48,403 bases of DNA from Candidatus Moraniibacteriota bacterium (GCA_023261695.1 JAHFON010000005.1:1-48403), one strand, 5' to 3'; positions 8,343 to 23,314 are shown, numbered from the stretch's first letter. Notes: generated by a model not told the origin, from the letters alone. Made by a program: numbers and translations.

Positions 8343-9056
8343 ATGTCTACTCTTATTTTTGATATTGAAACCGTGGGAGAAGATTTTGACGCTTTGGACG
8401 AGACGACGCAGGACGTGCTGACGCGTTGGATAAAAAAAGAATCCGAGAGCGGCGAGGATTATGCGGCCGCGCTGGCGGATATGAAAAACGGACTGGGATT
8501 TTCACCGCTCACGGGACAGATTGTGGCTATCGGCATTTATGACGGCGAGCGGGAGAAAGGGGCGGTGTATTTTCAATCTTCTCCGAAAAAGAAAGACGAA
8601 AGTTTTGAAGAAAACGGCTGTAAATTTGAAGTGATGACGGAAAAAGAAATGCTGCAAAAATTTTGGGAGGTAGTGGAAAAATATGAAACATTCGTAACGT
8701 TCAACGGCCGTGCGTTTGACGTGCCGTTTCTGATGGTGCGTTCGGCGATTCACGGAATTCGTCCGAGTAAAAATTTGCTGGCCAACCGCTATCTCAATTA
8801 CCAGCCCGGGCACGCCAGGCACGTTGACCTTTTGGATCAACTGACGTTTTATGGCGCGATGCGCAAAAAAGGAAGTTTGCATCTTTGGTGCCGCGCTTTC
8901 GGCATTGAAAGCCCCAAAGCGCAGGGCGTGGACGGCGATGACGTGAAAGCTCTTTTTGACGGCGGTCGTTCCACCGACATCGCGCGCTACAACGCGCGAG
9001 ACTTGCGCGCGACGTACGAACTTTATACTCATTATCTCCGCCTTTTGCAATTCTAG
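8343..9056 (+). CDS. RNase H-like / PolB-type 3'-5' exonuclease domain protein
   Basis: ExoI FDIET, ExoII VTFNGRAFDVPF, ExoIII YNARD. Confidence 0.88.
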   Translation: MSTLIFDIETVGEDFDALDETTQDVLTRWIKKESESGEDYAAALADMKNGLGFSPLTGQIVAIGIYDGEREKGAVYFQSSPKKKDESFEENGCKFEVMTEKEMLQKFWEVVEKYETFVTFNGRAFDVPFLMVRSAIHGIRPSKNLLANRYLNYQPGHARHVDLLDQLTFYGAMRKKGSLHLWCRAFGIESPKAQGVDGDDVKALFDGGRSTDIARYNARDLRATYELYTHYLRLLQF

Positions 9057-10199: not shown

Positions 10200-10241
10200 T
10201 ACCGCTATAAATTGCCAATCCGGTACAAATATACGAATATT

Positions 10242-10958
10242 ATGACTTTTGAAGAATCTCAATCGTTACCGAAACATGTAGTCATCATTCCTGACGGCAA
10301 TCGACGCTGGGCGGTCGAACGTGGCCTGCAGTCTTGGGAGGGACACGAAGCCGGTGCCCAAAACACGGAGAAACTGATACGGGAAGCCAAAAAACTTGGC
10401 ATTAAAGAAATGTCTTTTTGGGGATCGTCATTGGAAAATCTCTCCAAGCGTCCCTTGATGGAACGTCGAGCTTTGCTTCGCATTTACGAAACTTATTTCA
10501 AGAAACTCATTGCGAGCGAGGAAATCCATCAAGACGAAGCGCGGATCCGTTTTATCGGACATTGGGAGGAGCAGTTTCCGGATTCTCTCAAGAAAATTAT
10601 GTGCGAGGGCATTGAAGCGACCAAAAATTACGGTAAATATTTTTTGAATTTTTTCTTGGCGTACAGCGGCGATGACGAGATGCGTCTAGCTTTTGAAAAA
10701 GTCGCGCGTCTGCTTAAGGAAGGTGAGAAAGTGACTAATGAAATGATTAAAAATAGTTTGATGACGCGAGAATTGCCGCCGGTAGATTTATTGATTCGCA
10801 CGGGCGGCGAACCGCATTTATCCGCCGGTTTTATGATGTGGGATATCGCCAACACGCAACTTTATTTTTCCGATAAATATTTTCCGGATTTTGACGAAGC
10901 GGCTTTCTGCGAAGCGATAGCCGACTACACGGAAAGGCAGAGAAGGTTTGGGAGGTAA
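10242..10958 (+). CDS. uppS: Undecaprenyl diphosphate synthase
   Basis: HVVIIPDGNRRWA, SLEN..R, DLLIRTGGE.HLS.GF motifs. Confidence 0.95.
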   Translation: MTFEESQSLPKHVVIIPDGNRRWAVERGLQSWEGHEAGAQNTEKLIREAKKLGIKEMSFWGSSLENLSKRPLMERRALLRIYETYFKKLIASEEIHQDEARIRFIGHWEEQFPDSLKKIMCEGIEATKNYGKYFLNFFLAYSGDDEMRLAFEKVARLLKEGEKVTNEMIKNSLMTRELPPVDLLIRTGGEPHLSAGFMMWDIANTQLYFSDKYFPDFDEAAFCEAIADYTERQRRFGR

Positions 10959-11188
10959 GTAAAAAATTTTCAATTTCTGATTTTCATTAATGTATTATGC
11001 CTCTCAAAGTCGGTACAATCAAGACGCAACAAGACCTTCTTACAACAACAGTAGTAGGGTGATTCCTTTCGAGTTTCGGATAACATTGCCGGCTCCAAAC
11101 TGGCAGACAATCGCGCGTAAACAGCCCCCAGCTTCATAACTGGAGGAGGACTTTTTCATTTCCAGAGATTTTGCTATTATGTGTATGT

Positions 11189-11350
11189 GTATGAGCACGC
11201 TACAATTGAGCGAAAAGTAGCCTAAACCCCGGTTTTCTACCGGTGGCATGGTGAAAAGTCCAGTTAGACATAAAGAACCCATCATGTGGGGTGTCTAACT
11301 GGCCATATCGGGAAACCGGTATGAGGGGCTTCGGCCTCTACTCATGTGGT
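11189..11350. ncRNA. Candidate structured RNA (unassigned)
   Basis: Nested stems TACCGGT/ACCGGTA, ATGG/CCAT, CCAGTTAGACA/TGTCTAACTGG, plus a cUUCGg hairpin at 11324-11339. Confidence 0.45.
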
Positions 11351-11390
11351 GGGCTTTTTGTATTCAAAATTTAAATTTCAAGATTAAAAA

Positions 11391-11753
11391 ATGAAACCAA
11401 GCGGACAAGATAAAAACAAGCAACATCTAATATTTGTATTGCTCGATAAAGGACAATGTTTTTGTGTTTCTAAAAAATATCAAGAAGCAATTGAAATTTT
11501 TGATAGAATCTTAACGATTGATAAAGAAAATCCGGATGCATCAAGAGGCAGAGCTTTTGCAGTATCAAAATTAAAAGAACAGGAAAAAACTGAAAATCCA
11601 AGGACAGACATAATACCTACATCTCTGAGATGCGATATAAATGGAGATAAAATAAATGACAGGGGCTCCTATTCTGGAAAAAGAATAGAGAATAATACTT
11701 ATGATGAAGATTCTAATGATTTTGAAAATTTGCAAAAGATATATATCGATTGA
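11391..11753 (+). CDS. TPR-containing protein
   Basis: KG......KKYQEAIEIFDRILTIDKENPDA pattern typical of a TPR. Confidence 0.7.
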   Translation: MKPSGQDKNKQHLIFVLLDKGQCFCVSKKYQEAIEIFDRILTIDKENPDASRGRAFAVSKLKEQEKTENPRTDIIPTSLRCDINGDKINDRGSYSGKRIENNTYDEDSNDFENLQKIYID

Positions 11754-11761
11754 AATATTTT

Positions 11762-12787
11762 ATGAAAATAATAATAATTATTGTTATCACTTTGATGGGT
11801 GTGGCGAGTTTGATTACTTTTACTCCACAAGTTTCTGCTTTTATAACCCCTCATTTGAACACTCCATTACAGGTACAGATGACTCCTTCCCAAGAATGGA
11901 ATAACCAAGAAACCCGTAACAATCTGATAGCAACTTACGGTCTTTTGCTATTCAATTCTTGCAGTGGGAGTGAACAATATTGTACCAGCAGTATGGATTC
12001 GTACGGATATGCAACTTGTTTACGATTTGTTCAATTGGATCTTGCTCAGAGCATAAAAGATGGGTGCCGTGCATCATGCTCATCTGGTTATTACAGAGCA
12101 TCGAATGGCCAATGCCTAACGCCGGAGGCAGGATGTAACAAGGAATTTGGGCAGGACTCGCACTTTTTAAAGTACAATACAAAAGGTGAACCTGACTGTG
12201 GCACTTGTGCCAAGGGCGATGTTTGGGATCCTTATTATTCCAGATGCGTAGCCCAGACTCCGAGTGGAAGGCTCAACACTGATAATAAACTGACCAATGA
12301 TTGTGCCAGTGGTTATGAATGGAATTCAAGTCGAGATCGATGTGTTGTAATATCACCAAAAAGATCACAAGATCAAATCTGTAAAGATAGGTATGGAGAA
12401 AATAGCATATGGGATCGGACCATATATACCAAGTCCAAGAATTGGGCCCGAGTTACGTGTGATTGTGTAAGTGACTATAAGTGGAATAAGGAAAAGACAA
12501 TGTGTGTCGCATTACCGGTTACTCCAGCATCAAAGACTACATCTTCACAGACAGCCGATCTTAAAACTACAGAATCTCCTAATCTCAAAACACCTGATAC
12601 AAAGCTTCAGGATGTAACTTTCCCAAAGCTTCAGGATGTAACTTTCCCATCGCAAGTAAATAATTTTTCAACTGATGTCACTGCAAAATCACAAATAAGC
12701 AATCTTACGGTCAGTGAGGTTTCGAATACGCCAGTTTCCGCAAAAAATGGCTTCTGGTCGTGGTTTCTTGGTTTGTTTGGATATTAA
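11762..12787 (+). CDS. Exported cysteine-rich repeat protein
   Basis: Signal peptide; repeated C-x2-G/D-x2-W-x5-C units; Thr/Ser-rich linker; C-terminal FWSWFLGLFG. Confidence 0.75.
   Translation: MKIIIIIVITLMGVASLITFTPQVSAFITPHLNTPLQVQMTPSQEWNNQETRNNLIATYGLLLFNSCSGSEQYCTSSMDSYGYATCLRFVQLDLAQSIKDGCRASCSSGYYRASNGQCLTPEAGCNKEFGQDSHFLKYNTKGEPDCGTCAKGDVWDPYYSRCVAQTPSGRLNTDNKLTNDCASGYEWNSSRDRCVVISPKRSQDQICKDRYGENSIWDRTIYTKSKNWARVTCDCVSDYKWNKEKTMCVALPVTPASKTTSSQTADLKTTESPNLKTPDTKLQDVTFPKLQDVTFPSQVNNFSTDVTAKSQISNLTVSEVSNTPVSAKNGFWSWFLGLFGY
12600..12647 (+). repeat. 24-bp in-frame tandem repeat (KLQDVTFP x2)
   Basis: CAAAGCTTCAGGATGTAACTTTCC twice. Confidence 0.9.
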
Positions 12788-12802
12788 AATCATCAAAACA
12801 AT

Positions 12803-13189
12803 ATGCAAGACGAAAAACAGGCGGACAAAATTTCTGTAAATAACAGTATAAGCAGGAAAACGGCCATATTGTTGTTAGCTGTCGTATCCGTGCTTTTCAT
12901 CGGGTATAAATATATTTCCTCAGCCATAGACGAACAAAGACAGAAGGCGATAGAGGATAAAAAATTACAAGCAATTGAACAACAGAGAAATGAGTTGCTA
13001 CAGTGTTTGGATACAGCTAAAGGAGAGTTTGATAGAAAAGTGAAAACATCGAAAGAGTTCGGCTGGTATGATATGCAACATAATGGATTATCGCTAGATC
13101 AAGTCAATTCCCTAACAGCTCCAAAGATAGAAGCAGATAAGAAACAGATGGAAGTAGACAAGCAGGAATGCTACCAAATATACAAATGA
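12803..13189 (+). CDS. Membrane-anchored hypothetical protein
   Basis: Single TM then coiled coil with two Cys; operonic spacing. Confidence 0.7.
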   Translation: MQDEKQADKISVNNSISRKTAILLLAVVSVLFIGYKYISSAIDEQRQKAIEDKKLQAIEQQRNELLQCLDTAKGEFDRKVKTSKEFGWYDMQHNGLSLDQVNSLTAPKIEADKKQMEVDKQECYQIYK

Positions 13190-13935
13190 AATCCAGATTA
13201 CTGTATATCTACATCCTGATTATTCTCCTCCTTGCCGGTGGCGTTTTTGCTTATAAGAGTTCGCATAACGAACCACAAGTAATCAGTCCGCCACCAAAAG
13301 AAGAACCCCAGAGTACTTTTGACCAATCCTTTGGATTTGAGTGCCCAAGTGACTTTAAGACGTATAAAGAATATCTTGGTTCAATAGGTCAATGGGTGAT
13401 TAGATATACTGAAAAGTACCCCAGAGCAAGCACGGAAGAAATGATGGCTGTCCGGGATACGCTCAGAGAAAGGAATAATTGTGGGATACCACCCATTAAT
13501 ACAAGCACATCAGAACAATCAAAGAGTAACCTTCCTCAAAAGTACTATTTCAGTGATTCTAGCGCCGCTAAAAGTGGTAGTTGCCCAGGTATGGGTACCA
13601 GTTTGCAGGGGAAATATGACTCTGTTATACGGTATGGAGTCATCAAGTTTTCTTCGACTTCAGGGGACATACGGCTGAACTATTATGATATCAAGCAAGG
13701 GAAGGTTCTAGAGAGCTTTCAAGAGCATCCCTGGTTTTGGGCAGGCATTGACGATATAGATCATGATCAGTGTATGGAAGAATTTGCTCAATTCGTGGAA
13801 AGTAACAGAAATTCCATCTTTAAGATAGAGGGCAAAAAGGAAGGCGATGACTGTGTTTATTATACAAATGGGCCTTGTCTAGAAAACATCACGATAAAGA
13901 AGGCGACTGCCATAGGTGAATATACAGAGAGATAG
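13186..13935 (+). CDS. Membrane-anchored hypothetical protein
   Basis: ATGA overlap with the previous gene; N-terminal TM; paired Cys. Confidence 0.7.
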   Translation: MKSRLLYIYILIILLLAGGVFAYKSSHNEPQVISPPPKEEPQSTFDQSFGFECPSDFKTYKEYLGSIGQWVIRYTEKYPRASTEEMMAVRDTLRERNNCGIPPINTSTSEQSKSNLPQKYYFSDSSAAKSGSCPGMGTSLQGKYDSVIRYGVIKFSSTSGDIRLNYYDIKQGKVLESFQEHPWFWAGIDDIDHDQCMEEFAQFVESNRNSIFKIEGKKEGDDCVYYTNGPCLENITIKKATAIGEYTER

Positions 13936-13997
13936 CTTCACTGAGCTTGATATTGCCGCAGGATTGAGAAATCGTAGTTGTGGAGTATACTTGTATT

Positions 13998-15002
13998 ATG
14001 GAAGACATCTATACAATTCTTATTCTAATTTCATTTATTTGCTTGGTAGTTGGCGTAATTAAGCCAACTTTTTTCTCTCGTGTATTGAAAAGTTGGGCCA
14101 CGAGGGGGAGAATTGGTCTTGTTTTTGGCATTTCGACATTTATTCTCTTCGTCCTTTTTGGCATTACATCTGATAAAAATGAAGTAGCTCGGCAAGCGGA
14201 AGCCGCCAGATTGGCAGCCCAAATAATTGAATCAAAAAAACCGGAGGCAAACCAGGAAGAAGCGATAGCAGAGAGGAACAGTGAAAATCTCTTACCGGCT
14301 AATACGGATGTTCAGCAGGCTACATTGGTACCGGAAGAAGAAAAGAAAGCAGAGGAAACCTTTGAGGTCGTCAGAGCAGTTGATGGCGATACCATCGTGC
14401 TGAATATAAACGGCAAGGCAGAGACATTGAGACTCATTGGCATTGATACGCCTGAAACTGTCGATCCACGTAAGCCGGTGCAATGTTTTGGCAAGGAGGC
14501 TTCTGACAAGGCGAAAGCAACATTGAATGGGAAGATAGTGAAGATTGAAGCGGATCCGTCTCAAGGGGAGAGAGATAAATATCAAAGACTTCTTCGCTAT
14601 GTGTTTCTTGAAGATGGTACCTCGTACAATAAAATGATGATTGAGGAAGGATATGCTCATGAGTATACATACAACCTCCCATATAAATACCAAGCTGAAT
14701 ATAAAGAAGCCGAAACAAGCGCAAGAGACAACAAGAGAGGTCTCTGGGGAGATGTCTGTAATGGAAACACCTCACAATCCGCCCAAAACACAAGTACACC
14801 AAGCGCCGCTGCTGTTACTGCAGTCACAGAAGTGGAGCCAGAAAGAACGCCAAGCTCTTCCCTTTCATATGGCTGTAACTGTAAGAAGACCTGCGCCCAA
14901 ATGAGCTCATGTGATGAGGCTCAGTATCAGCTAAAGTCTTGTGGGTGTTCCGCTCGAGATGCAGATAAAGATGGGACAGCATGTGATTCTCAGTGCCAGT
15001 AA
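13998..15002 (+). CDS. Membrane-anchored thermonuclease (SNase) with C-terminal Cys-rich Excalibur-like domain
   Basis: VDGDTI, RLIGIDTPE, DKYQRLLRYV, RGLW motifs; C-terminal CAQMSSCDEA...DADKDGTAC. Confidence 0.9.
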   Translation: MEDIYTILILISFICLVVGVIKPTFFSRVLKSWATRGRIGLVFGISTFILFVLFGITSDKNEVARQAEAARLAAQIIESKKPEANQEEAIAERNSENLLPANTDVQQATLVPEEEKKAEETFEVVRAVDGDTIVLNINGKAETLRLIGIDTPETVDPRKPVQCFGKEASDKAKATLNGKIVKIEADPSQGERDKYQRLLRYVFLEDGTSYNKMMIEEGYAHEYTYNLPYKYQAEYKEAETSARDNKRGLWGDVCNGNTSQSAQNTSTPSAAAVTAVTEVEPERTPSSSLSYGCNCKKTCAQMSSCDEAQYQLKSCGCSARDADKDGTACDSQCQ

Positions 15003-15056
15003 ATATTTAACACATAGCGTATGCTGGCAAGTTAAAACTCAGCTTAATATAATGCT

Positions 15057-15584
15057 ATGTCAAGATACCTTGAGAAGGTCGAGCAAGTAGTCCGGAGTTT
15101 CAAAAGAATACCCCCACCAGGTTATCCTGAGTCTACCAAAGATGACGTGTGGGATTTTTACCGGTATTTTCTTCAAGATGCCTACCACCTTAAGGATTGG
15201 ATTGTATATGATGACTCGCTTGGTGTGAGTAAGAAAGAGATGGATGCCTTTATTGAAGGTAATATTTATATGAAGCTTCTTCAGTCAGTTGTAACAGGCA
15301 TCAAGCATTTAAAGGCTAACCATAAGCAAATAGTTTTTCCTAACCTTGTTCTTACGTGGGTTGATGAGGGCGGGTCAGAACCCAGTCCCGCGGTTTCATG
15401 TGGTGATTTAGTTCTTGGTATTGATGAGGAAGGATACTTTTTGTTAGAGGAAGATAGCAGCACAACGAGAGTAGAGAAACAAACGAAGACTGTGCACCCT
15501 AGAGTTTTAAGTGTAAAAGTTCTTGAAGCTTGGAATCAATTTTTAAAGAACCATGGTTTGGATGGTCATTTTGGGCTCTCTTAG
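15057..15584 (+). CDS. Hypothetical protein, possibly HEPN-like
   Basis: Helical N-terminal part with YHLKDW and TGIKH; family call is tentative. Confidence 0.55.
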   Translation: MSRYLEKVEQVVRSFKRIPPPGYPESTKDDVWDFYRYFLQDAYHLKDWIVYDDSLGVSKKEMDAFIEGNIYMKLLQSVVTGIKHLKANHKQIVFPNLVLTWVDEGGSEPSPAVSCGDLVLGIDEEGYFLLEEDSSTTRVEKQTKTVHPRVLSVKVLEAWNQFLKNHGLDGHFGLS

Positions 15585-15690
15585 GGGTCTACCCCGTGGC
15601 TTGCCGCGGTATCAAAGACAAGGTTGTCAGAGATACCTCGCCAGCTTGCTGCGCGGAGTATTCATTACTGAAATTAATTTAAAAAAAATC

Positions 15691-16683
15691 ATGGGATCCG
15701 GAGCTGATCGAAACAATCCCTGTCCATGTGGAAACGGGGAAAAGTATAAAAATTGCTGTATGGGAAAAATGGAAACGAGAAAATGCCCTCGATGTAAAAA
15801 AGACAATCAAATTGCCGAGGAGGCTCGAAAATTTCAATGTGGTCATTGCGGTGCCTATCTCTCAAAGGTTGATCGTCCCTCAGTAGTAGAAGTTCTCAAA
15901 ACGACTGATGATTTAGATAGCCACCTAAATCAGAGAGTGCTTCAAAACTTTCTAACTATGAACTTTCTGGACACTGCTCTATCTGATCAAGAGGGGCAGG
16001 GAAAGTTTATGCAGAGGCAAGTGAATGCCTTGCGTAGCCTAATGAAAGCTAACAAACACTTGCGCTGTTATCGGCGTGATGAGGTTACGGAGATGGAACG
16101 TCTCGGAAAAGCTAATGCCGAGTCAGGGACCACAAGCTATATTGCTTCTATCGAATCTATTGAGCTCGAAGCTGAGTGGGACGCCTATTTGGTTCAGCTA
16201 AAATCGGCACTGGACACTTTTGCTGGAGGCCTCGGTATCCTCGTTGATGTACCATTCCACGGCTGGCATTCGGACACTGATAGAGCAACTGGGAGGAAGA
16301 GAAGCGGTATAAAAATTCTGAATGCCCTGAAGAACATCGGTACTCCTTCGCCTGAAATTGAGGCAATGGTTTCTTTCTTGGAAGCCAATATGGAGTGGGT
16401 TACCCGTATTGTAGAGCTTCGGGATAAGCCAGTTCATCATGGTCAGTCAGTCGGAAGCGGCATTCATTTCAATCCTGAGCTAAGCACCACGCACAAGGCA
16501 AAAATTATTCATGATAAAAATCAATCAGAAGACATCGCTACTTTTATGGAACGTACCTTGAAAGATATGGCTTCTTTTTTTCGAATGCTCACGTATTTGG
16601 GAATCAATCATCGGCTTGATAAAGGCTTTAAGATGGGTGTGGACAAAGACGATAACTTTATTATCGTATTCCCGTCTGTGTAG
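15691..16683 (+). CDS. SEC-C motif / Zn ribbon / HEPN-like protein
   Basis: RNNPCPCGNGEKYKNCC (SEC-C), CPRC..CGHC, and R-x4-H (RDKPVH). Confidence 0.7.
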   Translation: MGSGADRNNPCPCGNGEKYKNCCMGKMETRKCPRCKKDNQIAEEARKFQCGHCGAYLSKVDRPSVVEVLKTTDDLDSHLNQRVLQNFLTMNFLDTALSDQEGQGKFMQRQVNALRSLMKANKHLRCYRRDEVTEMERLGKANAESGTTSYIASIESIELEAEWDAYLVQLKSALDTFAGGLGILVDVPFHGWHSDTDRATGRKRSGIKILNALKNIGTPSPEIEAMVSFLEANMEWVTRIVELRDKPVHHGQSVGSGIHFNPELSTTHKAKIIHDKNQSEDIATFMERTLKDMASFFRMLTYLGINHRLDKGFKMGVDKDDNFIIVFPSV

Positions 16684-16821
16684 GGATGGTTGATAGGGGA
16701 GCCCGAAATTTTTTCCAATAGACAGAGTAATTTTTTTCAAACGTTGATGCCAGTGTCTCTCAATAGCGTGAGTAATCTCTGTACACAGAGAAACAAGAAT
16801 ATTCTGGCTTCGTGTAAATAC

Positions 16822-17334
16822 TTACCCTTTGATCAAGTCTTTTAGATCCATTGCACCCTTTACGATACTATCATAGCCAGCGCGGTCACATAAACTAAGG
16901 AATCGTTCAAACTTTTTGGTGTAGTTACCATTATAGAGAATTCTACCCATGCTTGCCCGGCTATCACTTAGTTTTTGTAGTCGATTTAACCGGTATAACA
17001 CCTTACCCGCTACCGAATGGCGGTTGTAGGTGGTTAATTGATACTGGAGCCCATGACAGCGTCTGCACTTGAATTCGTGACCATTTAGCGGCAAATAGAG
17101 TTTAGTAGCTCGATAATCACACATACATCGAAAATAGGCTCGCGCGCCATAGGTAATATCCCTCCACTCTAGGGCTATCTTCTGAGGCTCATTCCCAGAC
17201 ACGCTAATGCACCAATCTGACTTATCATCCGGATCTTCTGCCCAAAAGTTTATATCCGCACGCGTTCCAAGCCCCAGTAGGAGATCCTTTGGAGTCAACG
17301 TGTAGCAATTTTCAACAAATAATTCAGTGTTCAT
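16822..17334 (-). CDS. Zn-finger hypothetical protein
   Basis: YFRCMC.YRATKLY...FKCRRCHGLQY motif. Confidence 0.7.
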   Translation of the reverse strand: MNTELFVENCYTLTPKDLLLGLGTRADINFWAEDPDDKSDWCISVSGNEPQKIALEWRDITYGARAYFRCMCDYRATKLYLPLNGHEFKCRRCHGLQYQLTTYNRHSVAGKVLYRLNRLQKLSDSRASMGRILYNGNYTKKFERFLSLCDRAGYDSIVKGAMDLKDLIKG

Positions 17335-17589
17335 ACAAATGTGATTTTGTAGTTATTATTCATGGCGGTTTTTCCATGATGGGGAGGAAAGTTCTGGATT
17401 GCCCGGCATGGAAGCTTCTTTGTGCCTGCAGGTACGATTCGCCATCAAAGTAACTAAACCGGGCTACTGATAGTCTATTGTTGCTCCTGCTTCTGTTGCC
17501 TGCTGTTGTAGATCTCTTATGATTTTCTGCTATTATTAGCCTTCTTTTGTTTGTTATTTCCTGTATTCTTTTTTCCGAATTTAGCTCAA

Positions 17590-18105
17590 TTGGGCAAGAG
17601 GGGGGAGTATGCCGTCCGATTGGTACGTCATTATGGTCCTGTGTATTTGATTCCGTTGTTTCTCGGAATACACGTCTGACTGACTATCGGTACCTGGATC
17701 TCACAGGATTTTCGGCGACTCGCCCATAGACTATTTCCACTAGCTTTCGATTGCCGTACCGTTTTGGTATGTCATATGTACGCCCATCAGTAGGACAACG
17801 TACACGTTTACATCTCTTCTCTGATTTTCCTAATACGGGCTAGGGGTCTGATGAGACCTGTAACATAGATATCAGGTCACTAGCTCGTATTGGGCCCTAG
17901 ATTGCTGTCTAGAGAGCATCAGGAGGAGTCGTTATTTTAATGGCGTCCAGCAGGCGGATTAACGATTGCCTCCACACCCTGCCAGTAACTCCGCATCGGC
18001 ATTGCTACCTTTGCAACGTACCGAGCTTTATTAGCGTTCGGTCGCTCACCCCACATTTTATTGAAAGGTAGGAACCAAAATCACACTGCAATTTTGATTC
18101 CTACT
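17590..18105. ncRNA. Large ORF-less, hairpin-dense region (candidate ncRNA or ssDNA origin)
   Basis: At least eight stems, including a 15-bp stem 17829-17843/17880-17894 enclosing GACCTG/CAGGTC; no credible ORF; strand ambiguous. Confidence 0.45.
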
Positions 18106-18535
18106 GAAGATTATCAAAGTACCAAAAACTTCTTCGAAAATCAGTCAATTTTCGGTATTTTAATGGAAACACAATAAAAAAGCGCTTTATAGCGCTATTT
18201 TTGTCTTAATCTGCTTCTTCCTCCAGCATTTCAAGTTAACTGCTTGCCTCAAGGTCAATTTTCAAAAAAATTGCGAAAAATATTTTTACCGGCATTGATT
18301 TCCGAAGTGAAAAGAGATCAAAATCCATTTTATATCCGCCACGCGAGCGATAACCCTACCACTACCCCATCATCTCTAAAGGAGGAGGTATGAGTATACC
18401 CCCCAATCAACATATTGCCTTAATTTAGCCATTTTCTTCTGGCTATACCACTTTATGGGTATTAGGAGCTCACTAATCAGTGACAACGAGCTCCGGCATG
18501 CTCGGTCGAGGCATGTGTCACATCCATATACAAGT

Positions 18536-18724
18536 ATGAAAAGAGAACAAACAGTATCATATGCCCCCGGCGCTACAGCAACTAAGCCAATGATTCGGAT
18601 TGCCAACCGGTTTCTTGAGGAGTACGGCTTTACAGTGGGGGACAGGGTCGAAATCAATTATGCAGACGGTCTAATTACCATTACTCATATAAATCTATAT
18701 GACCACGACAATACAATGGCCTGA
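18536..18724 (+). CDS. SymE/AbrB-fold protein (SymE-like toxin or regulator)
   Basis: PMIRIANRFLEEYGFTVGDRVEI matches the SymE pattern P.I.L.G.WL...GF..G..V.V. Confidence 0.7.
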   Translation: MKREQTVSYAPGATATKPMIRIANRFLEEYGFTVGDRVEINYADGLITITHINLYDHDNTMA

Positions 18725-18890
18725 GGCCATATCCCACCAAAAACGGGAACTTATTACACAACTAATCCTTCAAAACATTGAAAGCGATGAGGATAGAGAT
18801 CAATGGTTAGATGAACTTGAAACGGCTACCGCATATGATGGAGAAGAAATAATGGCTAATCTACTGGAAAATATAGCGCCAAAACTATAA
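18699..18890 (+). CDS. Small acidic hypothetical protein
   Basis: 63 aa ORF overlapping the SymE-like gene. Confidence 0.55.
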   Translation: MTTTIQWPEAISHQKRELITQLILQNIESDEDRDQWLDELETATAYDGEEIMANLLENIAPKL

Positions 18891-19011
18891 ATCTACTGGG
18901 AACGTCAAAGTTTTTGGTACTTTGGTAACGTTAGTAAGGAGGTTTTAATGGGTCGAATTATAACCACACCTGAAACAACATCAAATTTATAAAGGTAGAG
19001 AGAAAAAACAT

Positions 19012-19251
19012 ATGATCTACAAGAAATCTGAGGGTGAGCCTACAGCACTCCTAATCTCATGCAGAGACGAAGTAGCGGTGCAGGACAGACTGACATTCCA
19101 CTCGTATTTGGCGGGAACTCTGCGTATCACGCACTGGATTGAAGAGACAGATGATCTCGAGTCAAGGCTCGAAAGCATGTATGACATCCTCTTTGAGGAC
19201 GTAATGCAGAGCAGGGGAAGTAGCGGTACAGGGAATGAGGCAGTGAATTAA
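19012..19251 (+). CDS. Small hypothetical protein
   Basis: 79 aa ORF leading the recombinase operon. Confidence 0.5.
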   Translation: MIYKKSEGEPTALLISCRDEVAVQDRLTFHSYLAGTLRITHWIEETDDLESRLESMYDILFEDVMQSRGSSGTGNEAVN

Positions 19252-19281
19252 TAATCTTTTTAAGAAGTAATAAATAACATT

Positions 19282-19740
19282 ATGACCAAGACAACTAAAA
19301 AAGACCAAAAACGCGTTGCGATCTATGCGAGGGTAGCATCTTCAGGTGTTGTGGCTGAGAGAAGCCTCGCAAGACAACTCGATGAGATAAGAAAACATGC
19401 GAAAGAGAAAGGACATATGGTCTTTAAGGAATACTGCGATGTAGGCATAAGTGGAGGAACCGAAAACCGGCCGGCGCTTGATCAACTGAGAAAGGATGCC
19501 AACAGAGGGTGTTTTGAAGAGGTTCTATTACAAACGTCAGAAAGGTTGGCACGCGGGTACCCACTCATGGCTTTGTTTTTAGACGAGCTGGAAGAGCGGG
19601 GAATATCATGTGTATCAGTTGCCAAGCCAGTTTCTCTTTTATGTATTGGCATACAAGAGGAGGATTTGGCAGGCATGCAAGAGGGGCTTCCGTTCAAGCA
19701 CCCGGGCAGATATGAGGCAAACAGAGCAAAAAATGAATAA
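19282..19740 (+). CDS. Serine recombinase catalytic-domain-only protein, catalytic Ser apparently replaced by Ala
   Basis: AIYARVAS (consensus YxRVS), D.GISG...RPALDQL, ERLAR; no DNA-binding domain. Confidence 0.8.
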   Translation: MTKTTKKDQKRVAIYARVASSGVVAERSLARQLDEIRKHAKEKGHMVFKEYCDVGISGGTENRPALDQLRKDANRGCFEEVLLQTSERLARGYPLMALFLDELEERGISCVSVAKPVSLLCIGIQEEDLAGMQEGLPFKHPGRYEANRAKNE

Positions 19741-19754
19741 AATAATGAAAATTT

Positions 19755-21542
19755 ATGAGCGACATAATTGAAAAGGAAACCAAGCTGATAGCGGTTTATG
19801 CTAGAGTTTCCACTTCCGCACAGGAGGAACAGGAAACTATCGAGGCGCAGCTTTTGCAGGTACGCCAATTTGCTGATAAGCACGCCTATACAATCGTAAA
19901 TGAGTATCTCGACAATGGATGGAGTGGTGACAGTATTATAAGACCAGCTCTCGATCAGCTCCGGATAGATGCGAAGAAGAAAATATGGGAAGGGGTTTTG
20001 ATATATGATCCGGATAGATTAGCTCGCAGATACTCGTATCAGGAGCTGGTTATGGATGAGTTACGTGAAGCTGGTATAGAAGTGATATTTGTCACTACTT
20101 CTGCTCCCAAAAATGAAGAAGATAAGATTCTGTATGGAGTTAAGGGATTATTTGCTCAATATGAGAGAGCAAAAATTGCGGAGCGTTTCCGCATAGGAAA
20201 GATTAACCGAGTAAACTTGGGTCATGTGCTAACAACGGAGGCGCCATTCGGCTACACGTATATACCGAATATGGGTAAGAGAGGTACAAGTGAGTATGTT
20301 TTTGGCTATTACAAGATCAATAGAAACGAAGCGAAAGTTGTTGGCATGATCTTCAAATGGGTTGCCAATGATGGATTAACTCTGAGGGCTGTTGTACGGA
20401 AGCTACAAGAACAGAGCATACCTCCTCGCCGGAGTAAGCGGGGCGTATGGAATACAAGCACGTTGAGTACTCTTTTGCGCAATCAAACCTATATCGGCAA
20501 GGCACATTGGGGATCTTCCTATGCCGTAGTTCCCGCGAAGCCATTGAAGGATGAAAAATACAGGAAAATTAAAAAATCAAGCAAGCGTATGAAGCCAGAA
20601 AGTGAGTGGCTGTCCATTCCTGTAAAAGCCATTGTGAAGCAGGATCTTTTCGATCGTGCAGGACAAAGATTAAGGGAGAATTTTGCAATGATGGGACGGA
20701 ATAAGAAGAATGATTACCTGCTCGCTGGAAAGATCTGGTGCGCCTGCGGGAGAAGAAGGGCTGGGGAAGGACCGCAACATGGAAAACACCTTTATTACCG
20801 ATGCACAGATCGAGTCTATAGCTTCCCATTACCTCGTACTTGCAATGAGGGGGGGATCAATGCCAGAATTGCCGATGAAGCTGTGTGGCAGAAACTCAAG
20901 CAAATCATGAGCACCCCAGCATTAATGCTGTCTCAAGTTGAGCGATGGATGGGTAATCATAAAAGTAATGAGAGCAAGAGAGTCGTTATGGATATCGAGA
21001 ATGCTGAAAAACAAATAGCAAAACTAAATGGGCAAATGGATAAGTATGCCAAGGCTTACTCTGCAGACGTCTTTACTCTCAAACAGTTGAAGGGCTATCT
21101 GGCACCTCTGAAAGAAAAAATGGCTGTATTGGAAAAAAGTCTTGCTCAGGCCTATAGTGAGCAATTGCCAAAACTTGAAATGGCAACGCCGACCATCGAA
21201 GAGATAGAACTCTTTGCCAAAGACGCCACAAAAGCCTTGGATGGCTTGAGATTTAGCTCTAAGAAGGCTATAATTGGGAAAACTATCGATAAAATCATTT
21301 CTACTCAGAGAGATCTACAGTTCTACGGCTTTATCAATTTACAACAAATACATGTCGAGTTCATCACTGAGAGTCGGTATTGTCGGTTTGCCCAACGTGG
21401 GGAAGTCCACCCTGTTCAAAGCGCTGACGCGCAAAGCGGTGGATATCAACAACTATCCTTTTTGTACCATAGAACCCAACGTGGGGATTGTGGAAGTGTC
21501 AGATTCTCGCCTGTCGCAATTAGCCGCGCTTTCTCGAAGTAA
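19755..21542 (+). CDS. Large serine recombinase (integrase)
   Basis: YARVST, DRLAR, APFGY recombinase domain, [16 protein letters not shown] Zn ribbon, coiled coil; reads through the right att site into ychF in another frame. Confidence 0.95.
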
Positions 21543-22410
21543 AAAAATTATTCCGGCGGTCATTGAATTTGTGGATATTGCCGGTTTGGTCAAAGGGGCG
21601 AGCGAGGGAGAAGGTTTGGGCAATAAATTTCTTGGGAGTATTCGCGAAGTGGACGCGATAGTGGAGGTGGTGCGGGTGTTTGAAAATCCTAATATTATTC
21701 ACGTTCACAATCGCGTCGCGCCGACGGAAGACATTGAAATTATCAATGTTGAACTTATTTTGTCCGATTTGGAGACGCTGACCAAGCGCAAATTCAAAAC
21801 CGCCAAAGACGCGCGCGCCGGAACCAAATCGGCTGTGGCGGAAATGAGCGTGCTGGAAAAATTGGAGACGGCGTTGCAGGCAGGCAGTTTGGCGCACGCT
21901 GTGATACAGAAATTTTCAGACGAGGAGCGAAAAATCGCGCAGTCTTTGCAGTTGTTGACCGCCAAGCCGTTTTTTTATGTGTATAATGTTTCGGATATCG
22001 ATGCTGATTTAGGCTCTGAACTGGAAAGCCGTCCCCACGTGAAACTGGATATCAAAATTGAAGAAGAACTGCTGGAAATGTCGGCGGAAGAAATAATTGA
22101 AATGGGACTGCGGTCGCATTTGGGCGATCTTTCGCAAAGAGCCTACGCCCTGCTTAATCTCATCACGTATTTTACCACCGGCGAAGACGAAACACGCGCC
22201 TGGACGATTGTTCGCGGATCTACCGCGCCAATCGCGGGAGCGGCTATCCATACTGATTTTCAAGAAAAATTCATTCGGGCGGAGGTTATTCATTGTGAAA
22301 AATTACTGGAAGCTAAATCATGGAGCGCCGCTCGCGACGCAGGCTTGCTTCGTTTGGAAGGCAAAGAATACATCGTCCAAGACGGCGATGTGGTTGTATT
22401 TAAGATTTGA
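21352..22410 (+). CDS. ychF: Ribosome-binding ATPase YchF (N-terminus supplied by the element)
   Basis: [55 protein letters not shown]. Confidence 0.97.
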
Positions 22411-22459
22411 GTTTATCCGAATGATTGTTGAGCATTTTATTTTGTGATAAACTTGTTTT

Positions 22460-22753
22460 ATGACTACGGAAATTATCAAGAAAAAAATAGTCCCGATTCT
22501 CAAGCGCCGAGGAGTTCTCAAGGCAGCTGTTTTTGGGTCGGCCGCAAGAGGTAAAATGACAAAAAAAAGTGATGTTGATTTATTGTTGGAGATCTCACAA
22601 AATAAAACGCTTTTTGACATAATAAAGCTTAAATTGGAATTGGAGGAAAAATTAAAAAGAAGTGTGGATATAGTGGAATATAGCGCCATCCATCCTCTTA
22701 TTAAAAATCAGGTTTTGAAAGAGCAAAAAAATATATATGAAAAGAGACCCTAA
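22460..22753 (+). CDS. Minimal nucleotidyltransferase antitoxin (MntA-like)
   Basis: FGSAARG.....SDVDLL motif. Confidence 0.92.
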   Translation: MTTEIIKKKIVPILKRRGVLKAAVFGSAARGKMTKKSDVDLLLEISQNKTLFDIIKLKLELEEKLKRSVDIVEYSAIHPLIKNQVLKEQKNIYEKRP

Positions 22754-23075
22754 ATTATTTTTCGCGGATATCTTTGAAAGTATTGAGTTGATTGAAAAAT
22801 ACACAAAAGGTTTGACGTACGAAAAATTTATTAAAAACAATACAATTCAAGATGCGGTATTGAGGCGTTTTGAAATAATTGGAGAAGCTGCAAAAAATAT
22901 TCCAGATAATATAAAAAAGAAACACCAGAATATACCATGGAAAGAGATGGCTAATATGAGAAATGTAATTTCTCATGAATATTTTGGTATCACTATGAAA
23001 AGAATTTGGAATACGGCAAAAAAGGATTTGCCAAAACTTAAAAAGCAAATTTCAGGCATTTTTATAACATCTTGA
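22737..23075 (+). CDS. HEPN (DUF86) toxin, HepT-like
   Basis: DAVLRRFEIIGEAAK, IPW, RNVISHEY (R-x4-H). Confidence 0.92.
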   Translation: MKRDPKLFFADIFESIELIEKYTKGLTYEKFIKNNTIQDAVLRRFEIIGEAAKNIPDNIKKKHQNIPWKEMANMRNVISHEYFGITMKRIWNTAKKDLPKLKKQISGIFITS

Positions 23076-23314
23076 GTTGCATCGCTCTCTCGTCTGGAGG
23101 GCAAAGAATACATCGTCCAAGACGGCGATGTGGTTGTATTTAAGATTTGAGTTTAATGCCTATTTATGGGTAAAATGTGGCCATTGACTTTTTCTATATT
23201 TTAGTGTAAAATAAGCTGTTGCAAAATCCAGTGCAATAGGTTCCTTAATAATTGGAAATTATCCATTAGGAAAAATAGGAAAAACAATCGTTAGATAAAA
23301 AAGGAGAAGTGTAG

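Follow-up and report, generated by a model that had tools for sequence, protein, structure and literature searches.

Serine integrases are central tools of genome engineering, and the reversal of their one-way reaction is an active question; in the model serine integrases, the attachment site of the element (attP) is not known to lie inside the open reading frame (ORF) of the integrase gene (int). In mycobacteriophages with integration-dependent immunity, which use tyrosine integrases, attP lies in the repressor gene and integration alters the C-terminus of the repressor and thereby its behaviour. The tyrosine integrase of Mx8 has attP within int, and integration reportedly gives a new 3' end and an altered yet active protein with changed properties (PMC6070905), while SSV-type archaeal integrases have the site inside the ORF, such that integration splits the gene and excision rejoins it (PMC7253208). 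In gene-regenerating islands (of tRNA, tmRNA and similar genes), the element restores the displaced gene end, and a fragment marks the other boundary (PMC4383910). Here we evaluate a 48,403-nt stretch (hereafter, the window), which is one entire contig of Candidatus Moraniibacteriota bacterium (GCA_023261695.1, JAHFON010000005.1; genome of 860 kb in 43 contigs), and interpret its positions 11014-21377 as an integrated mobile island of 10,364 bp (~10.4 kb) that lies in the early codons of ychF and is mobilised by a large serine recombinase (LSR), the product of int (19755-21542).

The anatomy that we describe places the attachment site inside int, such that integration rebuilds the start of ychF and swaps the tail of the integrase (Int), and of this anatomy, which can be read from the sequence, we are nearly certain. 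Our overall best explanation, to which we give a probability of roughly 55%, is that the recombination state of its own gene would set two Int isoforms, one with and one without this tail. Whether the two isoforms differ functionally we regard as an even bet, and that such a difference concerns directionality seems to us somewhat unlikely.

A mobile island in the early codons of ychF

The insertion point is the GG of ychF codon 6 (Gly6). Left of it stand uppS (undecaprenyl diphosphate synthase, the host gene on this side; 10212..10958, +; Pfam Prenyltransf, E 1.9e-56) and the displaced native 5' end of ychF (10997..11013, +), an ATG, four codons and the GG of Gly6 that encode MPLKVG before the frame enters element DNA, an assignment that draws on the native starts of relatives and on the empty-site contig described below. 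To the right, an ATG at 21352, within the int ORF, opens ychF with an element-supplied start (MSSSSLRVG...; 352 aa; 21352..22410, +), and both YchF domains were recognised in the product (P-loop GTPase, MMR_HSR1, PF01926, E 8.7e-22; YchF-GTPase_C, PF06071, E 3.5e-33). This island-fused gene is the sole full ychF of the 860-kb genome and shares 69-79% identity with same-genus ychF. The repeat AGTCGGTA is present at 11008-11015 and 21372-21379; the core at both ends, the rebuilt ychF start and its MSSSSLRVG beginning at the ATG, all of which an earlier note on this DNA had claimed, were confirmed in the sequence.

An 8-nt repeat in 10 kb is not rare, and the region holds many chance pairs of at least 12 nt, such that one might posit no mobile element at all, only a chance repeat and a long, divergent ychF N-terminus that overlaps a recombinase gene. 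We give this reading next to no weight, as it is refuted by native starts in relatives, by an empty site, by the displaced MPLKVG and by further elements. The 41 related genomes surveyed gave 20 ychF loci, 19 of them from other genomes of the same genus, and all 19 have an uninterrupted native start (M[SA]L[KQ]VG in 18, MAGTKLNVG in one), with MSSSSLRVG found in 0/19. Parts of the window are also covered by four groundwater sequencing runs, all four of them assembled contigs. Contigs from three runs of one study (one maybe the source) span both junctions of the island (attL and attR), while run X4, from another study, has zero coverage of the element and instead supplied a 247-nt contig that aligned to 21372-21596 with 9 differences and whose preceding 22 letters match window positions 10986-11007 at 21/22. 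We interpret this contig as the predicted empty host site, attB (…ATGCCTCTCAA|AGTCGGTATTGTC…), in a close relative that is roughly 96% identical, and so the attB junction that the earlier note had predicted was found. Seeing the native starts, the X4 empty site and 17 further elements with the same pair of junctions, we conclude that the 8-nt repeat is not a chance one.

The relatives were also expected to carry uppS next to a ychF that begins with MPLKVG. The MPLKVG-like, uninterrupted start held in all 19, but the adjacency did not: uppS lies within 1.5 kb upstream of ychF in 0/19 relatives, many of which have a divergent phosphoglucomutase-like gene upstream of ychF, and the uppS-ychF adjacency is therefore particular to this genome.

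The attachment site lies within the integrase gene

In its integrated form, int (19755..21542, +; 595 aa) is element-encoded over residues 1-541 and read from ychF DNA in another frame over residues 542-595: the int frame crosses the core as S540-R541-Y542 and then runs through 53 residues from ychF DNA. The detached 3' part of int, comprising R541 and 41 codons (RYNQDATRPSYNNSSRVIPFEFRITLPAPNWQTIARKQPPAS), lies at the left end (11011..11139, +) as an open frame with homologous tails in other elements; after R541 it is open for 41 further codons up to the stop at 11137-11139, which would give a circular-form Int of 582 aa. The crossing and the two lengths proposed earlier (595 aa integrated, 582 aa circular) were thereby borne out by the reading frames.

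Both ends are available for 18 elements (the 17 above plus the window), which measure 5,696-11,532 bp. Junction alignment revealed that GG is the sole sequence common to attL and attR in 7/18 of them, from which we take the crossover dinucleotide to be the GG with which the Gly6 codon begins. The core of the earlier note survives as a repeat present at both ends, whereas as a crossover it shrinks to GG, the 8 nt being a longer chance overlap. With the att logo of the 18 elements as a guide, attL of the window (10988..11037, +) joins the B arm of ychF to the P' arm of the element across the crossover GG (11012-11013). In attR (21352..21401, +), the P arm of the element (ATGTC, 21352-21356) is joined across its GG (21376-21377) to the B' arm of ychF, which holds P-loop codons.

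The attP reconstructed from the same logo spans 50 bp, ATGTC (-24..-20)-N19-GG-N19-GACAT (+20..+24), in which the ATGTC/GACAT dyad is matched in 16-18 of 18 elements and the inner symmetry is weaker; by comparative inference, the site has the ~50 bp, imperfect dyad and 2-nt crossover that are usual for LSRs. The whole of attP is int coding sequence (codons about 532-549). Its ATGTC reads [Y/H/N]-V in the int frame and Met-Ser in the ychF frame, where its ATG is the new ychF start, and its GACAT reads as the R-H of NTTRH in the int frame. In attB, the native ychF ATGTC sits at -15..-11, 9 nt nearer the centre, and the new ychF N-terminus is for this reason three residues longer than the native one, with MSSSSLSIG or MSSTKLAIG before the native P-loop sequence as the usual product in the family.

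The integrase and its family

Int is, judged by its domains and models, a canonical LSR. Pfam recognised Resolvase (PF00239, E 1.4e-27, residues 12-151), Recombinase (PF07508, E 2.7e-18) and Zn_ribbon_recom (PF13408, E 4e-07, 30.8 bits against a cut-off of 25.3), and both R17-V18-S19, with the nucleophilic serine, and the four zinc-ribbon cysteines C329, C331, C350 and C363 are invariant among 35 aligned homologues. AlphaFold2 (AF2) predicted a coiled coil in the zinc domain (ZD; helices 388-407, 414-436 and 442-469 in window Int), with equivalents in P0118, a homologue in which Int is uninterrupted. Foldseek searches with the P0118 model found the SPbeta, phiC31, Bxb1 and LI integrases as the closest solved structures, the best matches being the full-length SPbeta and phiC31 integrases (E 1e-21 to 1e-16), at an identity of Int to solved LSRs of only 13-18%.

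Among 8000 candidates scored, 2400 were Int homologues at E<=1e-3, and the best 120 share 55-68% identity and, where named, belong mostly to Patescibacteria/Candidate Phyla Radiation (CPR) groups. The C-termini of homologues are mutually non-homologous as integrase and resemble ychF P-loop DNA in the wrong frame. A scan of species-representative genomes gave 199 relatives, with 80 loci kept for analysis, and in 72/80 the int 3' end overlaps the YchF P-loop motif, always in the same relative frame. Within these 72 loci, an in-frame ATG from int with no stop before the Gly codon is present in 71, the ATG stands exactly 8 codons before the Gly codon in 59, and ATGTC occurs at -24 in 57. The central claim of the earlier note, of an att site inside its own integrase gene that recodes both the ychF N-terminus and the Int C-terminus, hence holds family-wide. 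Of 400 further genomes drawn evenly from the phylum, 4 had a close homologue at E<=1e-100 (~1%), and a scan of a viral contig collection with the Int alignment found no Int relatives, so nothing ties the family to known phage contigs. The bacteria that carry it are mainly small-genome ones (Patescibacteria/CPR-labelled).

Two loci depart from this pattern. In L053 (10001-11707), int is broken and its longest frame into ychF has 324 aa; in L062 (about 11560-11600), a stop follows the element ATG (MSH*), and ychF would need another start, e.g., GTG.

Integrated int ORFs are full length (about 500-600 aa) in 71/72 loci, which bears on whether the integrase might be "suicidal" in the SSV manner, with an inactive tail-less Int, an island locked in and an intactness that reflects recent insertion. 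The layout with attP in int is that of the SSV type, in which the integrase disrupts its own gene as the element integrates (PMC7253208), and further points in favour are that no excision product occurs in the contigs of the four runs or in the metagenome stretches described below, that the window copy has no Xis-like gene and a degenerate P' motif, and that one of the 72 int genes (L053) is broken. Yet only about 41 of 582 codons are lost and every recognised LSR domain is kept, 71 of the 72 integrated ORFs are intact, and the same site is used in many lineages by sequences that have diverged to 55-68% identity. Such a same-site, diverged family across many lineages implies repeated horizontal spread, and with it repeated exit from the chromosome or another transfer route, and we consider the suicidal scenario quite improbable.

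Conservation of the detached tail

The homologue P0118 ends in …NTTQH…LIPFEFIIKLPAP…, like the left-end frame of the window and not derived from ychF. A profile of such tails placed a tail ORF upstream of int, on the same strand, in 17/72 ychF loci (E 1e-9 to 1e-20), with one additional weak match (L064). Directly before the tail stands, in all 17 and in the window, a remnant of the ychF start that reads M[SAP][LF][SQK][IV]G, apart from variants in length. The tail is open in 18/18 left ends, over 32-52 codons. Its consensus reads R-[YH]-G-x-N-T-T-R-H-(x5-12)-K-L-I-P-F-x-F-x-I-K-L-P-x-P, in many cases with QYERxIxARNxQGxI behind it. The IPFEF-like tail that the earlier note had sought at the left ends of homologous elements is thus present in all 18 elements with both ends. 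Run against 1.84 billion representative proteins, the profile gave 88 matches at E<=1e-3, 87 of them 37-255 aa long. Among six matches examined, three are short tail ORFs and two (P0138 and P0192) are C-terminal int fragments that continue uninterrupted into the tail, while the top match, P0122, was rejected as an unrelated 3015-aa repeat protein.

Codon usage separates two kinds of constraint along the tail. The first 9 tail codons are nearly fixed (AAC 13/13, CAT 16/17 and GTG 7/7 among consensus-residue copies), which points to DNA constraint from the attP P' arm. In the KLIPFxFxIKLPxP block, beyond the attP arm, each conserved residue is encoded by 2-6 synonymous codons (Pro 4, Leu 5-6), and this synonymous variety argues for constraint at the protein level; the pooled ratio of nonsynonymous to synonymous change (pN/pS) of the tail is 0.49, with pS saturated at 0.69. 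A tail that is unlinked from int and nevertheless open and protein-conserved suggests selection in the circular state, where the 582-aa Int would be whole; selection in that state would mean that elements leave the chromosome, and the tail-less Int would then have to perform the excision.

These observations also bear on the view that the tail swap is a harmless by-product, with a separate factor (HTH_17 or other) setting direction and both forms acting alike. In its detailed version, attP, which has to imitate the ychF 5' end and bring an ATG with it, would fit nowhere but in the linker before a dispensable or stabilising tail. It is helped by the catalytic, recombinase-domain, ZD and coiled-coil parts all being intact in the integrated form, and we hold it to be unlikely, since a dispensable tail, unlinked from int in the state that almost every assembly shows, should decay, yet this one is open in 18/18 elements and conserved as protein past the attP arm.

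A separate micro-protein made from the tail while the island is integrated was considered and rejected: an ATG at 10990 is in frame with the tail in the window, yet it reads TTG in the relative from X4, and no start in this frame exists at other left ends. Second tail copies occur in L067 (3309-3569) and L079 (938-1435), at distances of about 1 kb and 9 kb from the first. The one in L079 carries a complete ATGTC-N19-GG dyad arm, which suggests remnants of older or tandem elements.

Uninterrupted integrase genes

Eight loci have no ychF beside int, and in 7 of them int reads through the dyad into the same tail; in one of these, L079 (from a record labelled Bradyrhizobium), a 1-nt frameshift in the tail shortens it, and the eighth locus, L050, stops at the contig end. 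The dyad plus tail pattern was found in 26 stretches of metagenome contigs (L120 being the same contig as L101), 13 of which have a recombinase ORF that passes through the dyad into the tail. Eight others were set aside as chance matches to the pattern (L104, L107, L110, L115, L116, L118, L121 and L126), four have tails behind short ORFs and are ambiguous in state (L106, L109, L111 and L122), and L119 probably holds only part of an int gene. Searching by words with the P0118 tail region gave 12 candidates and 3 matches and is too insensitive for counting uninterrupted forms. With uninterrupted genes in 7 loci and 13 metagenome contigs, full-length int occurs in nature.

The contigs that carry uninterrupted int in L099, L092, L082 and L079 and in metagenome stretches L105, L123, L124 and L127 range from 17 kb to 2.25 Mb, and some are labelled Limisphaerales, Alphaproteobacteria or Bradyrhizobium. 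Neighbours of uninterrupted copies include IS110 and rve transposases, an IrrE-like peptidase, ThiF/multiubiquitin genes and a NERD-domain gene, with IS110, rve transposases and defence-like genes present in the contexts of L099 and L079.

Predicted structures of the integrase and its tail

AF2 models of P0118 and of integrated window Int both have LSR architecture, with a mean predicted local distance difference test score (pLDDT) of 74 and 69, respectively. In P0118, confidence is low in the attP-encoded linker (527-547, pLDDT <50) and rises to pLDDT 86 in the block that contains the tail strand (551-559). In the integrated window Int, residues 535-595 have pLDDT <50, such that the host-read tail is predicted to be disordered. 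C-termini of solved LSRs are often disordered as well (28 C-terminal residues unbuilt in SPbeta; 590-605 in phiC31; PMC11722253, 10.1101/2025.05.02.651858), which is a further point for a swap of no consequence.

Modelling window Int residues 150-540 in complex with the left-end tail of the window gave a score of 0.73, against 0.02 for the best control. On a benchmark, this mark was attained by 58/80 solved complexes and 2/110 mismatched pairs, counts that hold only roughly since our own alignments were used here. Runs agree in at least 82% of contacts, with a partner pLDDT of at least 53, and recall of a solved complex is unlikely because no solved LSR is closer than 18% identity. In the model, the final strand of the zinc domain (Int 518-530) is paired with residues 15-29 of the tail (SSRVIPFEFRITLPA), which also contact Int 368-398 and 476-484, where the coiled coil exits and re-enters the domain. 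High-confidence predicted docking at the ZD/coiled-coil base argues against a tail without function. In phiC31, the extreme C-terminus lies in an acidic patch that faces the recombination directionality factor (RDF) (10.1101/2025.05.02.651858).

Two proposed integrase isoforms set by recombination state

As sequence comparison shows, recombination at GG puts the int-coding P arm before the ychF P-loop codons, and ychF stays whole; the same event moves the last 41 int codons to the left end, so that the prophage Int ends in out-of-frame ychF. To connect these observations, we propose that the detached tail may be a working part of the enzyme, its strand being modelled alongside the final strand of the zinc domain and against the coiled-coil base. 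The full-length form of the circle would be integration-proficient, the tail being needed for integration or making Int better at it, while the prophage form, lacking the tail, would still bind DNA and catalyse but with altered control of the coiled coil. The prophage form would thereby show less re-integration and/or easier excision and would still recombine attL with attR, perhaps with an Xis-like HTH_17 partner. Protein-level conservation, predicted docking and a host-read tail predicted to be disordered give indirect support for the tail mattering.

A stronger version, which we rate as unlikely, is that the tail may be a built-in, genetically switched directionality module, with direction encoded by the topology of the int gene in place of a separately regulated factor. 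In the circle, the coiled-coil base of Int would be held by its own tail and the enzyme would integrate only; integration would remove the tail DNA and free the coiled coil for an excisive trajectory, alone or with an Xis-like helper. The 50 bp would in this version hold recombination site, integrase codons, ychF start and perhaps part of the ychF expression signal.

A number of observations weigh against the two-isoform explanation. Its functional part draws on sequence and models; the docking is a matter of model confidence, obtained from our own alignments; and the apparent resemblance of the docking site to the region of SPbeta integrase where the directionality factor acts is inferred from residue positions. 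The tail was seen at the left end in only 17/72 ychF loci, its absence from the others saying little because flanks are <=10 kb, contigs end or elements are too long. No product of present-day mobility was seen: the contigs of the four groundwater runs contain no attP joint (contig-only data, in which absence weighs little), and 0/26 metagenome stretches are circular contigs with terminal repeats. A simple circle/prophage picture moreover fails to explain the copies on Mb-scale contigs with non-CPR labels (L099, L092 and L079).

The remaining points on this side concern a possible partner and the state of the window copy. An Xis-like HTH_17 gene lies just upstream of int in 39/75 related loci (PF12728, E 1.3e-13 for the copy of L053), and its protein, if we assume an RDF role, could set directionality as an ordinary factor, with a tail switch then unnecessary; this abutting gene likewise favours the harmless-swap view, against which stand the 36/75 loci that, like the window, have no HTH_17 gene beside int. 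In the window element the best match to the family hidden Markov model (HMM) has E 8.2, i.e., the gene is absent, and its slot in relatives is here occupied by a resolvase-domain remnant (19282..19740, +; 152 aa), a dead remnant in place of Xis. This remnant matches Pfam Resolvase (E 6.1e-18) over profile positions 1-100 of 145, i.e., only the first ~100 positions of the catalytic domain, has Ala at the catalytic Ser (RVAS vs RVST), is 40% identical to Int residues 4-114 and is unique to the window among the 18 elements. The outer P' motif of the window, GACCT at 11033-11037, matches the family GACAT at 4/5, and its tail reads RYNQDATRP at the attP-encoded positions where the consensus has RYGVNTTRH. 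With no HTH_17 gene, a resolvase remnant, GACCT and deviating attP-encoded residues, the window copy looks worn and is maybe past its prime.

Expression of the rebuilt ychF

The int and ychF genes are co-oriented and overlapping in 72/72 loci, and in the window ychF now lies 10.4 kb from uppS. We interpret ychF as probably transcribed from within or through int, and the earlier suggestion that it comes under element transcription is plausible from this gene layout. A promoter-like site inside int (TTGAGA-17-TATAAT, 21246..21274, +), which matches the consensus at 11/12, ends 78 nt upstream of the new ychF ATG. At the same offset from the crossover, 56/73 loci score at least 8/12 (mostly TTGA[AG]N…[GCA]ATA[AG]T), and best sites of at least 9/12 occur in 40/73 loci vs 54/292 control windows inside int. 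A sigma-70-type scan of 18800-21500 gave 5 sites against 4.5 expected, i.e., no enrichment, and only the recurrence at one position across relatives is suggestive. The internal promoter is a hint rather than a finding because the site overlaps conserved codons (L-x-F, A-I-I/V).

Cargo and neighbouring genes

Among the 18 elements, the only recurrent genes are int, the HTH_17 ORF (13/18) and a ~388-aa protein without a Pfam family (6/18: L036 8513-9679, L053 8504-9670, L074 8513-9673, L091 8513-9679, L045 8391-9632 and L065 2180-3355), which lies directly upstream of the Xis-like gene and int in five of the six and might serve the family in replication or transfer. Genes for a relaxase, for replication or for a capsid were not recognised in element cargo, in searches that had the PHROGs library outside their scope.

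The cargo region of the window (11140..19281) is nearly all on the + strand and shares none of its cargo with the 17 other elements. It comprises a TPR-like ORF (11391-11753), three ORFs without a family (11750-12787, 12803-13189 and 13168-13935), an SNase-type nuclease with an Excalibur-like end (13980-15002), an ORF (15057-15584), a SEC-C-motif protein (15553-16683), a minus-strand ORF (16822-17334) and an 89-aa SymE-like ORF (18455-18724, +; PF08845, E 9.5e-07, 29.3 bits against a cut-off of 29). The first of the family-less ORFs (345 aa, Cys-rich) contains a perfect 24-nt tandem duplication (12600-12647) that repeats the peptide PKLQDVTF.

Outside the island, an exact direct repeat of ~57 nt, which is the ychF 3' end including its stop, occurs at 22359-22415 and 23099-23155 and flanks an MNT (Polbeta/NTP_transf_2) and HepT-like toxin-antitoxin pair (22460-23075). 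This cassette looks like a second, small insertion that likewise regenerates the end of ychF. In genome G011, a stray ychF 3' fragment lies ~11 kb away from its ychF. Upstream of a polyprenyl synthetase gene and uppS, a 237-aa ORF (8343-9056, +) has a PolB-type 3'-5' exonuclease / RNase H-like domain.

Significance and comparison with known systems

The island family offers a natural system in which the C-terminus of a serine integrase varies with recombination state, the changed part being predicted near the site of directionality factors, and both isoforms can be read directly from sequence and compared in standard plasmid assays. It is also a case of dense overprinting, with one 50-bp stretch that is a dyad recombination site, codes for part of Int and, read in a different frame, begins an essential host gene. 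For CPR biology, it represents a class of islands that spans the phylum, varies in cargo and always targets the ychF P-loop codons, with a presence in about 1% of sampled genomes. For annotation, it accounts for many orphan ORFs of 37-255 aa, as tails, and for the odd, non-homologous C-termini of hundreds of annotated recombinases.

We found no literature precedent for a serine integrase whose attP lies in its own gene, nor any mention of CPR elements that target ychF, in the sources covered, including passages of PMC10083194, whose supplementary attachment-site tables could hold cases. Docking of a tail at the ZD/coiled-coil base likewise found no counterpart in the structural papers on LSRs covered here.

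Like SPbeta SprA, phiC31, Bxb1 and LI/A118, the integrase has a catalytic Ser domain, then a recombinase domain, then a zinc ribbon into which a coiled coil is inserted, and like these models it uses short dyad att sites around a 2-nt crossover and integrates within a host gene. Unlike them, the whole ~50-bp attP here codes for int, and the C-terminus depends on recombination state. Gene-regenerating islands share with it a target that is kept functional and a displaced fragment at the other boundary, whereas the part rebuilt here is a protein N-terminus with its start codon, supplied from an alternative frame of int and three residues longer. The mycobacteriophage immunity systems resemble it in that recombination state alters the C-terminus of a regulatory protein, there the repressor and here the integrase. 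The SSV type differs in its tyrosine recombinases and in a split that leaves two inactive pseudogenes, while here only the last ~7% is detached and the domains stay in one ORF. In Mx8 (IntP/IntX), the Int is a tyrosine recombinase and its targets are not a protein-coding 5' end that the int sequence needs to rebuild; in the present family, the bases shared with int also supply the beginning of an essential host gene. We interpret the island family as one that works like the Mx8/SSV arrangement and belongs to neither, its enzyme being a serine recombinase, and thus as a bona fide LSR family with an Mx8/SSV-like layout whose shared bases, in addition, encode the start of an essential host gene.

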